Shown here: positions 7,502 to 10,799 of the stretch, one piece after another
Layout of the letters: every line of letters begins with the position of its first letter
How positions within the stretch are numbered: position 1 is the first letter of the stretch
NCBI GenBank assembly: GCA_017999675.1
Contig: JAGNLL010000002.1
Span: 66,918 to 130,917, forward strand
Length of the DNA: 64,000 nucleotides
From: Rickettsiales bacterium
GTDB lineage: Bacteria > Pseudomonadota > Alphaproteobacteria > Rickettsiales > UBA1997
Direction: 5' to 3'
Position numbers and translations under genes: made by a program
The notes under the pieces: generated by a model
The model's input: the letters and a program-made list of their open reading frames with translations, nothing else
Databases searched by the model: none
Told to the model about the DNA's origin: nothing

Positions 7502-8290
7502 TCAAGGTAGTTTTTTGATTCCCCATCCGTTGACCCTATCTTTGTAGCTAAAAAATTTCTTCTGATTGATTAAAATATCTAAAATTTCGTCAGAAAAAGT
7601 TTTTTTATTTTCTCTTATTTCCCAAATTTTATCGAAGGCAAATCTTCTAACGGAGTGAGCAAGTAAATCTGCTAATTGTAGCCCAGCGATGTTCGCGGCT
7701 TTGTTTCGTATTTTGAGTTCTTTTGATGTCAAAAACTCGCTGAAGTCAGATGGTTTTAAAAAAGCGCTACCATTATCCATTAGATCTCGGAAAGACTCTT
7801 TTAGGCGAAGATCCTCTTTTCCACCCCTCGACTCAATCATTACGTCACCAACCGTTTGGTTCATTTTTAGAAAGCCGCGATAGCGTTCTAAAATAGCATC
7901 TAGGCATAGATGGTAAGGATCTTTATTCCACGTTGGGTAAAGATCGCAAAATTCTTTTTTATCAATGATTGAGCTGATTATTTTAAAATCCCATTTCTCC
8001 AAAAGACTCAGGAGGTCTTTATTGAAGGACTTTTCTAAGTCTGGGTTTTTTAGAATACGAAATTTCCCCTCTTTGCAAACCAACTCTTTACGATGAAAGA
8101 TAAGAGGCTCATCAGGATGATGTTCAAAATATTTTGTTTTTAAGTTCTCAAGCTCTGGATGAAAAGTTTGCAGAGTGTAATCTAGGTCAAAAATCACGCC
8201 AGAAAGGCATAAAAAACGGTGATTTAGGTCATCAGAATTCTTCAAGTCAGGATTTCCAACTTCGTCAATGTAAATGCGGTATTTTTTCAT
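7502..8290 (-). CDS. DUF3800-family protein
   Basis: 262 aa. The N-terminus MKKYRIYIDEVGN resembles the Y-[IV]-DE-[ST]-G start typical of DUF3800. It begins 4 nt after the truncated dnaE stop. Confidence 0.6.
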   Translation of the reverse strand: MKKYRIYIDEVGNPDLKNSDDLNHRFLCLSGVIFDLDYTLQTFHPELENLKTKYFEHHPDEPLIFHRKELVCKEGKFRILKNPDLEKSFNKDLLSLLEKWDFKIISSIIDKKEFCDLYPTWNKDPYHLCLDAILERYRGFLKMNQTVGDVMIESRGGKEDLRLKESFRDLMDNGSAFLKPSDFSEFLTSKELKIRNKAANIAGLQLADLLAHSVRRFAFDKIWEIRENKKTFSDEILDILINQKKFFSYKDRVNGWGIKKLP

Positions 8291-8294
8291 GGGT

Positions 8295-10799
8295 TTAGTG
8301 GGTGGTTGTGGTGATTCTTTCTACACTAAAATAAGCCTCACTATCATTCAAACTCGGCGCCAACACAGGAATGCCGTGGCTTTTGGCCACTTGCAAAAAG
8401 ATGTTAATTTTGTCGGTATTATCAATTTCGAGATTGATTGAAGCAGTTAAAAATTCCGGCAAATAATGCGCTTTCAAAAACGCAGTTTGGTAAGAAATTA
8501 AAGCGTAGGCTGCAGCGTGAGATTTGTTAAAACCGTAGCCGGCAAATTTATCTACTAGGTCAAAAATTTCTCCGGCTTGTCTTTCGGGCACGCCGTTTTT
8601 CATCGCGCCTGCTGTAAAAATTGCGCGCTGTTGATCCATCTCTTCTTTAATTTTTTTACCCATGGCGCGGCGCAGTAAATCTGCGGCTCCAAGGCTGTAT
8701 CCGGCAAGCACTTTAGCAATTTCCATTACCTGTTCTTGGTAAACAATTACGCCGTAAGTTTCTTTCAAACACACTTCTAAAAGCGGGTGCGGATACTCAA
8801 TTTTTTCGAGCCCATGTTTGCGGCGAATGTAGGTTGGAATATTGTCCATTGGGCCCGGACGGTAGAGCGAAATCAGCGCAATAATATCTTCAATTTTATC
8901 GGCTTTCATTTGGCGTAGAACCGAGCGCATTCCCGAAGACTCAATTTGAAAAGCGCCGATTGAGTCGCCAATACCAAGCATTTTGAAGGTTTGTTCGTCG
9001 TCGAGTTTTAGGTTGGTAATGTCAATTTTAATGCCGCGATTTTTTTCAATTAGCTTCACGGTTTCAAAAATTGTCGTGAGGGTTTTTAGTCCCAAAAAGT
9101 CAAATTTTACCAGCCCAGCATTTTCAGCATATTTCATCGAATAGCCAACGGCAGGCATGGTTGAGCCTTCATCATTGTAAAGTGCACAAATTTCGCGAAG
9201 TGGCTTGTCGCCAATAACCACGCCGGCTGCGTGAGTTGAGGCGTGACGATTTAAGCCTTCAAGTTTTAGGCCAATGTCAACTAACTTAGTCACTTGCGGG
9301 TCTTCTTTAATGGCTTGCTGCAAGTCTTTATCCATTTCAATTGCCTTCTCCAAAGTGACAGCTTCGATGGCGTTGAAAGGGATCAATTTGCAAATTCGAT
9401 CAACTTGATTGTAAGGCATTTGTAGCACGCGACCCACGTCTTTCAACACTGCGCGTGCTTGTAATTTTCCGAAGGTAATAATTTGAGCAACGTAATCTTT
9501 GCCGTATTTTGACTGCACGTAATCAATCACCTCGTCGCGGCGCGATTGGCAAAAATCAATATCAAAATCGGGCATTGAGACGCGATCTGGATTTAAAAAT
9601 CTTTCAAAAAGTAAACCGAAACGAATGGGATCAAGATCGGTAATTTGCAACGCCCATGCGGCAATTGACCCAGCACCCGAGCCTCTTCCTGGGCCAACTG
9701 GAATGTCGCTATTTTTGGCCCATTTAATGAAGTCAGATACGATTAAAAAATAGCCCGAGAAGTTCATTTTTAAAATTACTGAAAGCTCAAAATCGAGTCG
9801 GGCGAAATATTCTTTTTCAATTTCTGTTTGTTTTTCGAGCGTGGTTTCTTCAAGTGCAAACTTGCGCGTAAGCCTGATTTTCAAGCCTTCGCTGGCTTGT
9901 TTTTTTAATTCGTCAGCTTCGTTAAAACCTTCTTCGTTGCTAAATTTTGGTAGAGTTGGTGGGCGTTCAAACGCCATGATGTGGCATTTTTTTGCAATAT
10001 TAACGGTGTTTTCAATCGCCTCGGGAATATCGCTAAATAAGGCTTTGAGCTGTTCTTGGTTTTTAAAATATTGCTCGGGTGAATTTTTTTTACGGTCAGC
10101 ATCAAAGAAAAATCTGCCCTCGCCAACGCAAGTTAAAATGTCTTGCGCTTCGTGCATTTCGGGTGTCAAAAAATAAACGTTATTAGTTGCAACCAATGGT
10201 AGAGAGTGTTTAAGGGCTAGTTCAATAAATTTTGCCTCAAGCTTTTCTTCCAACTTTGTTTGGTGACGCGTGATTTCGATGTAAAAATTTTGCGGAAAAA
10301 TTTTTGAAAATTCGCTGATCAATTCCAAAACTTTTTGATCTTGGTCTTCGCTTAAAAGCTTGCCAATTGGGCCTTCAACCCCACCAGAAAGAGCAATTAG
10401 TCCGGCAGATTTTTCTTTGAGTAAATCAAAAGAAACATGTGGCGAAATGCCGCTTTGGCGATTCAAAAAAGAGTGGCTCACCAAATACATTAAATTTTCG
10501 TAGCCTTGTTGGTTGAAGGCAATCAATGGCAGCAAGGCGAGGGCGTTTTCAACATCGGCATTCGACATGTTTTTGCGCGTGCCATCGTCAAAATTAATCA
10601 ACATTTCGCAGCCCAAAATTGGCTGAATTCCAGATTTTTTACAGGCGGAAGAAAATTCTAAAGCAGCGAAAAGATTTTGGCTGTCCATGATGCCTAAAGC
10701 CGGTAGTTTGTAGGCGACAGCGCGTTCAACTAATTCAGGAATTTTAATGGCACCTTTGCACAACGAGTAGGTTGTGTGGTTGCGGAGAGGGATGAACAT
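8295..10799 (-). CDS. dnaE: DNA polymerase III alpha subunit, N-terminal ~830 residues only (C-terminal third absent)
   Basis: 834 aa. It has a PHP-domain start ([12 protein letters not shown]) and palm/fingers blocks ([37 protein letters not shown]). Homology ends at ...SEAYFSVE, followed by RITTTTH*. The clamp-binding, OB and tau-binding regions are missing. Confidence 0.85.
   Translation of the reverse strand: [834 protein letters not shown]

Follow-up and report, generated by a model that had tools for sequence, protein, structure and literature searches.

The 64,000-nucleotide (nt) window of contig JAGNLL010000002.1, from a Rickettsiales bacterium, raises the question of how this organism makes the alpha subunit of DNA polymerase III (Pol III alpha), as the dnaE gene in it stops near the equivalent of E. 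coli residue 830. A first-pass annotation of the same DNA took the end of the gene for an insertion or rearrangement breakpoint and left three explanations standing: (a) a decaying second copy of dnaE, (b) a genuinely split dnaE with its C-terminal part encoded elsewhere, or (c) a chimeric assembly join. Our analysis favors a split gene. With a probability of about 0.8, the gene in the window, here called dnaE-N, is the first of two genes that encode Pol III alpha in a family of freshwater Rickettsiales, and the two products function together without an intein. The features on which the argument first depends are the following.

8295..10799, minus strand: dnaE-N, an open reading frame (ORF) of 834 residues that cover PHP, palm, thumb, fingers and, at the end, positions 1 to ~19 of HHH_6
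8295..8312, minus strand: lineage-specific dnaE-N tail TTTTH and stop codon, standing where the ancestral dnaE-N end was
3874..7365, minus strand: mfd, the transcription-repair coupling factor, from ORF and domain calls

ORF calling places dnaE-N (834 residues), a DUF3800 gene (262 residues) and mfd in a row on the minus strand. The 834-residue ORF is matched by the Pfam families PHP, DNA_pol3_alpha and DNA_pol3_finger, and BLASTP aligns it with residues 6-825 of E. coli DnaE at 44.7% identity, confirming that it encodes the N-terminal part of the polymerase. Residue 826 of DnaE-N stands opposite E. coli residue 825. The ORF ends 7 residues past homology, with the unrelated tail RITTTTH, and E. 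coli DnaE runs 335 residues beyond the last matched position; the break near residue 830 and the ~330 missing residues had thus been correctly estimated by eye. DnaE-N covers positions 6-819 of the NCBIfam model NF004226 (DnaE1 equivalog, 1146 positions) with 1193 bits, above the cut-off of 1002, whereas the model of the error-prone DnaE2 yields 513 bits against a cut-off of 939. Positions 1-19 of the HHH_6 profile fall on the last DnaE-N residues, in a weak match below threshold (E=0.14). DnaE-N is a DnaE1-type core with the three catalytic aspartates, and its polypeptide lacks the helix-hairpin-helix (HhH) motif, the clamp motif, the OB fold and the C-terminal domain. As had been claimed, the rest of the protein is not encoded in any frame of the window: tblastn and phmmer searches of all six frames with the E. 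coli C-terminus, a hidden Markov model (HMM) built from 61 alphaproteobacterial DnaE C-termini, and tblastn with the clade's own dnaE-C were all empty.

An abrupt end, a non-homologous tail and an adjoining foreign gene of low G+C content are what one would see in a pseudogene, a dnaE cut by a DUF3800 insertion or by rearrangement and now decaying. The window also belongs to a metagenome contig, where a chimeric assembly with its join at ~8290 would have to be considered. Relatives of the gene bear on both. Among 5.8 billion protein clusters there are more than 120 relatives at 77-100% identity, with lengths of 812-852 residues and one exception of 770; most have 828-834 residues and none has internal stops. 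Many of them are internal to long contigs, which reach 1.5 Mb (1.2 and 1.5 Mb among them). Furthermore, a scan of GTDB with one genome per species, in which each match was extended to its stop codon, gave 80 dnaE loci. At 68-87% identity (L007-L025, plus L002-L006) the stop lies 0-4 codons from that of the window, at residue 829-834; the exceptions among loci at 68% or above are L011, which reads through, and L016 and L023, which are cut by the contig end. At 57% identity or below, the ORF goes on for another 313-409 residues unless cut by the contig end, and these full-length genes include those of Azospirillum, Wolbachia, Ehrlichia and Anaplasma. Two irregularities were seen near the end of dnaE-N, each of which may be an assembly error or real: in L011 (3509-3790) the stop is lost and 93 unrelated codons are read through, and in L008 (12400-12510) a frameshift results in an 816-residue call.

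The order dnaE-N, DUF3800, small RNA (sRNA), mfd was assembled independently and identically in NCBI, JGI and Logan data; loci L008 and L095-L098 and a JGI contig of 56 kb share the window arrangement; and the end of dnaE-N is unchanged in long-read and 1.5-Mb contigs. With the same ORF end in dozens of independent assemblies, the probability of a chimeric join is close to nil. The truncation is a character of the clade, not a product of decay, of a misjoin or of the DUF3800 gene. This clade, which comes from freshwater sources, is likely the GTDB family UBA1997, described as freshwater, reduced-genome epibionts of cryptophyte algae in a preprint that does not mention dnaE (10.1101/2023.01.31.526412), and the split has the appearance of a clean synapomorphy of this UBA1997-like Rickettsiales family. 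Among the best 150 matches from 1.84 billion representatives, no other lineage with a split at this point was seen: three short matches that reach the break (845-908 residues) overrun it and look like fragments, and the remaining short matches end before it. In the outgroup loci L026 and L030, long insertions occur exactly at the break point, suggesting that it may correspond to a permissive loop.

The C-terminal part is found as a gene of its own. The C-terminal HMM detects it as a separate ORF that shares a contig with dnaE-N in two species of the clade: in L021 dnaE-C (1076..2284) lies 8 kb upstream of dnaE-N on the same strand, and in L023 (4241..5497) it adjoins dnaE-N in divergent orientation. 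Such a stand-alone gene within the clade is what option (b) called for. A query with DnaE-C of L023 returned 453 homologues, the best 120 of which are all 373-418 residues long and contain HHH_6 and OB domains; several homologues carry the NCBI name "hypothetical protein". DnaE-C comprises the HhH motif, the clamp motif QMSLF, the OB fold and the C-terminal domain, which in E. coli alpha binds tau. The two proteins meet without a gap in the profiles: positions 820-1125 of NF004226 map to DnaE-C, directly after the segment covered by DnaE-N, and so do positions 20-89 of HHH_6, a domain that spans E. coli residues 808-898. Residue 12 of DnaE-C (IRFGLG) corresponds to E. coli residue 831, and the alignment extends over E. 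coli residues 831-1076. The start of DnaE-C consists of a methionine, 4-11 residues and then FAIRFGLGAIKAVG.

In the loci L087 (9103-11152), L090 and L116-L118, the usual neighbor of dnaE-C is bacA, and in L087 dnaE-C starts 4 nt after it. In L116 and L117 a phage-type integrase gene follows dnaE-C, which suggests an integration site there. In 61 outgroup loci, none of mfd, bacA, rsmD and mltA flanks the full-length dnaE.

Both genes bear signs of function. Residues D411 and D413 (PDFDIDF) and D567 (KFDFLGL) are invariant in 32 DnaE-N sequences, and QMSLF, which aligns to the internal beta-binding motif of E. coli alpha at residues 920-924, is invariant in 51 DnaE-C sequences. Pairwise ratios of nonsynonymous to synonymous substitution (dN/dS) are 0.07-0.12 for DnaE-N and 0.12-0.20 for DnaE-C, and dS exceeds 1. 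Low dN/dS at such values of dS indicates that the fission is old and that both parts have been kept by selection. The marks of a pseudogene, namely a lineage-specific lesion, relaxed selection and loss of catalytic residues, are absent here. A dN/dS of ~0.1 at saturated dS, invariant active-site residues, intact frames in the 120 or more relatives and the same end point in relatives without the insertion leave a decaying gene hardly credible, and option (a) falls with it.

A related possibility is that a full-length canonical dnaE lies elsewhere in these genomes and that what survives as DnaE-N and DnaE-C is a second, fragmented copy kept for another role, for example in repair. Two DnaE paralogues do exist in some bacteria (PMC3919608), and the clade genomes scanned are not complete. 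Nevertheless, the GTDB scan gave one dnaE locus per clade assembly, the genomes appear small (contigs of 1.2-1.5 Mb), and DnaE-N passes the DnaE1 equivalog cut-off while remaining far under that of DnaE2. The fragments, moreover, abut to the residue and are both under purifying selection. We consider a second dnaE unlikely.

The halves might also be joined covalently, after translation or as RNA, by unrecognised means, for instance a cryptic mini-intein or the trans-splicing of RNA, given that the only known natural split dnaE, that of cyanobacteria, is made whole through a split intein (PMC3919608, PMC6390638). The termini of the two proteins do not resemble such a system. Past the last homologous residue, DnaE-N tails have 0-7 residues of variable sequence (RITTTTH, RVN, RI, ILN and others), where an N-intein would contribute at least ~100. 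The equally variable heads of DnaE-C have 5-12 residues before the conserved part, where a C-intein of ~36 residues followed by a nucleophilic +1 residue would be expected; the conserved part opens with FAIRFG, where no Cys, Ser or Thr is conserved. The extra residues are unconserved on both sides, and the absence of intein-like blocks at the junction, already noted in the first-pass annotation, holds across the clade. The position also differs: the models of the cyanobacterial split DnaE, NF007079 (to 758) and NF005616 (from 753), meet at about residue 755, ~70 residues upstream of the break, and the motif at that site is intact in DnaE-N, with 753-761 invariant.

Since the window ORF ends so soon after the homologous part, it has no room for an intein. 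Likewise, mfd begins 1 nt after the dnaE-N stop in relatives and dnaE-C 4 nt after bacA, so that trans-splicing elements or intron halves have no room either. A covalent link between the halves is therefore very improbable, and in view of both constraints an alpha of two non-covalently associated chains is best supported.

The comparisons show that in an ancestor of the clade dnaE underwent fission at the equivalent of E. coli residues 826-830. DnaE-N (~830 residues) has retained PHP, palm, thumb and fingers together with the first element of the HhH domain, and DnaE-C (~375-415 residues), encoded elsewhere, the HhH motif, QMSLF, the OB fold and the C-terminal domain. We propose that the two assemble non-covalently into a functional alpha, most likely through an HhH/clamp-binding domain that they share and complete at the break, and that the catalytic chain would be tethered to the clamp and to tau via the second chain. 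Later, a sub-lineage gained a cassette of ~950 nt, with the DUF3800 and sRNA genes, just upstream of the old dnaE-N stop.

Several points weigh against this proposal. The physical association of DnaE-N with DnaE-C is deduced from sequence. The break falls inside a Pfam domain, HHH_6, and not at a clean domain boundary, and thus requires fragment complementation, which is undemonstrated for this enzyme. Single-chain AlphaFold2 models of both halves are poor, with a mean predicted local distance difference test (pLDDT) score of 59.5 for DnaE-N (alignment A1) and 60.6 for DnaE-C (A2) and values below 50 for the last 50 residues of DnaE-N and the first 24 of DnaE-C; no structural claim made here is based on these models. 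Whether a second full-length dnaE is present was judged from incomplete genomes of the clade. Finally, neither the 64-kb window nor the adjoining 9.9 kb on its left contains the dnaE-C of this genome; the left flank was provided by contig L091, which is 100% identical to window positions 1-4974.

The remaining part of the question concerns the DUF3800 gene that adjoins dnaE-N. The relevant features are as follows.

7366..8312: insertion of ~950 nt between the dnaE-N end and the mfd start, containing the DUF3800 gene and a convergent sRNA gene
7502..8290, minus strand: DUF3800 gene, 262 residues, Pfam PF12686
7422..7489, plus strand: structured sRNA gene of ~68 nt, with a terminator stem at 7456-7486 followed by a U-run

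The DUF3800 gene starts 4 nt past the dnaE stop, as previously read; the junction has the sequence TAA-ACCC-ATG, preceded by GTAGAAAGAATCACCACAACCACCCAC. PF12686 matches the 262-residue ORF with 53.6 bits against a cut-off of 21 (E=5.4e-14), and the motifs of the family are present in the translation, the N-terminal DE as YIDEVG and the C-terminal QxxD as LQLAD. Proteins of this family have a predicted RNase H-like fold with DE and QxxD motifs and have been linked to retrons and to a branch of Cas12a2 (PMC10910872, PMC7736814). Homologues of the window protein number 1729, and the named ones come mostly from metagenome-assembled genomes of Bacteroidota; one of them adjoins a restriction-modification system. 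Searches of PADLOC, PHROGs and NCBIfam gave no match for the window protein.

In L002, L004, L012 and L015, only 0-1 nt lie between the stop of dnaE-N and the start of mfd (TAA-A-ATG or TAA-ATG). The insertion has a G+C content of 0.36-0.37, compared with 0.41-0.46 in the flanks, and it recurs in L008, L095-L098 and the JGI contig, with DUF3800 proteins 74-92% identical to that of the window. The ancestral state of the clade is the dnaE-N stop, 1 nt and mfd, and the DUF3800 cassette is a later insertion in a sub-lineage. The DUF3800 gene is not the cause of the truncation, because relatives without the insertion have the same end point; the dnaE/DUF3800 junction is consequently not the truncating breakpoint that it had been taken for.

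What the cassette did change is the very end of the protein. DnaE-N of relatives ends in FSVE(R/K)(I/V)(S/N) or similar, that of the window in ERITTTTH and that of L008 in EKITTTKH. The tail TTTTH probably derives from the inserted cassette, and just the last few codons of dnaE-N have been altered. The stretch before the mfd start codon (AATTTCAGACAAAATGG) resembles the ancestral dnaE-N end (AATTTCTTAAAATGG), a similarity suggestive of a cassette that may have entered a few codons ahead of the old stop and supplied the new tail with its stop codon.

In L025 (5130-5845), a relative at 87% identity, the same junction holds an ORF of ~98 residues that resembles a GIY-YIG nuclease, without a DUF3800 gene; this ORF is flanked by repeated palindromic hairpin elements (GATCCTGAAACAAGTTCAGGATGACG). 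As L025 and the window carry different inserts at one junction, the dnaE-N/mfd junction is an insertion hot spot.

The cassette contains a second gene. The first-pass annotation had placed an orphan terminator before mfd; the terminator is real, and it is not an orphan, being the 3' end of a conserved sRNA of ~68 nt. A block of 39 nt in the spacer between DUF3800 and mfd is 100% identical in the window, L098 and L095, whereas the neighboring proteins are 74-92% identical, and the hairpin beside this block changes by compensatory substitutions. Positions that are C-A mismatches when read on the DUF3800 strand form G-U pairs when read on the plus strand, where a U-run also follows the stem on its 3' side, and the sRNA is therefore transcribed convergently with DUF3800. 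The layout is a 5'-AA, helix P1 (UCCNN/NNGGA), GGUG, helix P2 (GANGG/CCNUY) and an intrinsic terminator. The element occurs in 21/21 loci of a DUF3800 subfamily (47-92% identity; L095-L115 included), 5-25 nt past the DUF3800 stop on the opposite strand and with a length of ~58-71 nt; in L103 and L113, two of the 21, the sRNA is cut by the contig end.

Covariation supports the two helices. P1 position 4 occurs as AU, GC or GU, P1 position 5 as CG, GC, UA or UG, and P2 position 3 as GC, UA or AU. Pairing at these covarying positions is preserved in 15/15 distinct sequences, and RNAalifold predicts the same two helices. In the model-fitted alignment 94.9% of cells are paired, against 86.8% in shuffled alignments, and the covariation score is 0.249 against 0.132, with 0/500 shuffles reaching the observed value in either case; sliding the partners by 1-3 columns gives far lower scores. 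With a covariance model, uncut DUF3800 loci reach 52-67 bits and the cut copy of L113 has 23 bits; 1.48 Mb of unrelated control loci gave no hit, their best score being 18 bits. We considered a tiny ORF that would follow the conserved, Shine-Dalgarno-like GGAGGUG of the sRNA (GGAGGUGGA) and rejected it, as the 15 sequences share no conserved start codon.

Promoter-like sequence lies directly 5' of the invariant AAUCC. It is sigma-70-like in L114 and L115 (TTGACA-17-TATATT) and in L095 (TTGAAA-17-TATAAT), and in other loci it reads TAnnTTTG, the -7 motif of Bacteroidota. At 7387-7415 on the plus strand of the window the -35-like TTGAAA is kept, and the -10 element, TATAAT in L095, reads ACCGTG in the window and AACCTG in L098, even with 100% conservation of the RNA body. 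Given this altered -10 element, expression of the sRNA may differ in the window lineage.

The sRNA has no family match in Rfam 15, where all matches are below threshold and driven by the terminator. The Rfam families named after DUF3800 do not score on the window (E up to 10) and have no matches on 17 loci; on L101, DUF3800-I reaches 13.5 bits against a gathering score of 44.2, and the element is not assigned to that family. Eleven unrelated RNA motifs, several with 3' terminators, have been tied to DUF3800 genes without a functional hypothesis (Weinberg et al. 2017, PMC5737381). Like these motifs, DUF3800-I to -XI, the window RNA is a structured RNA beside a DUF3800 gene, a setting found in either orientation and often with an intrinsic terminator; unlike those that Rfam includes, with which it was compared, it matches no Rfam 15 family. 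It is either a twelfth DUF3800-linked motif or one of the 2017 motifs not in Rfam. We hypothesize that it acts as a cis-antisense regulator or antitoxin of DUF3800, or as a cofactor RNA bound by the protein. As a whole, the module could be an RNase H-like nuclease that is regulated by RNA or bound to it, a pair of the toxin-antitoxin kind or an element of defence.

Taken one step further, the observations lead us to lean, with some reserve, towards a twofold conclusion: a heterodimeric Pol III alpha throughout the family, with a dissociable module for clamp binding, the OB fold and tau, and, separately, DUF3800 and its sRNA as an uncharacterised, self-contained mobile module of two parts.

Some further features of the window are recorded here. 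A perfect inverted repeat of 24 bp (TGCCGCGCTTCGCTCGCAATGACG ... CGTCATTGCGAGCGAAGCGCGGCA) lies at 10929-10996, between xerC and dnaE-N, as a single copy in the window; it gives spurious weak Rfam matches, and its appearance is that of an intergenic palindrome or of a strong terminator for xerC. Directly downstream of mfd there is a conserved ORF of ~195-209 residues (window 3362-3949, minus strand; L002 15977-16606; L004 15926-16543), for which Pfam and NCBIfam gave no match. With this ORF as X, the clade appears to have a dnaE-N/mfd/X operon. The segment 60570-63936 (minus strand) contains recF and dnaN, and the ORF upstream of dnaN (62980-63936, minus strand), of 318 residues, is of low complexity and coiled-coil-like, has no Pfam match and is not dnaA.

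Pol III alpha is the essential bacterial replicase, and its conserved, intein-free division in this family shows that the enzyme accepts an interruption of its backbone between fingers and clamp-binding module. The two genes thereby offer a natural system for studying how the catalytic core couples to clamp and tau, as well as a natural split site for protein-complementation engineering. If the proposal is correct, a dissociable clamp/tau module could permit exchange of the polymerase at the fork. The arrangement is also a trap for annotation, as the C-terminal part is called "hypothetical protein" and pipelines may score dnaE as truncated or pseudogenised. The sRNA, for its part, provides a compact RNA-protein pair as a further case of the unexplained association of DUF3800 genes with noncoding RNAs.

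In a survey of ~2000 genomes, Pol III alpha was a single chain save for the cyanobacterial intein case, and other fragments were attributed to frameshifts or assembly errors (PMC3919608). Our literature search found no report of a conserved intein-free split of Pol III alpha. The intein-free, family-wide fission of dnaE adds to the known theme of split dnaE genes.

Rickettsia itself reportedly has split genes, described by Ogata et al. 2001 as consecutive fragments of a normally single ORF. The dnaE halves resemble them in being fragments of a normally single ORF in Rickettsiales. However, the split genes of Rickettsia are mostly adjacent, lineage-specific fragments that are regarded as stages of decay, whereas the dnaE halves are unlinked, family-wide and under purifying selection.

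Compared with canonical DnaE1 (E. coli, Thermus aquaticus; PDB 5FKU, 2HPI), all domains are present and collinear, but within HHH_6 the backbone is broken, past the counterpart of E. coli residue 825 and before that of residue 831. The closest parallel is the split dnaE of the cyanobacteria Synechocystis and Nostoc, where alpha likewise comes from two distant genes, with PHP and the polymerase core in the N-terminal part and the clamp-binding region, OB fold and C-terminal domain in the C-terminal part. The cyanobacterial halves carry intein parts of ~100-123 and 36 residues and are trans-spliced; those of Rickettsiales carry 0-12 unconserved extra residues, their break lies ~70 residues further downstream, and their hosts are Rickettsiales and not cyanobacteria.

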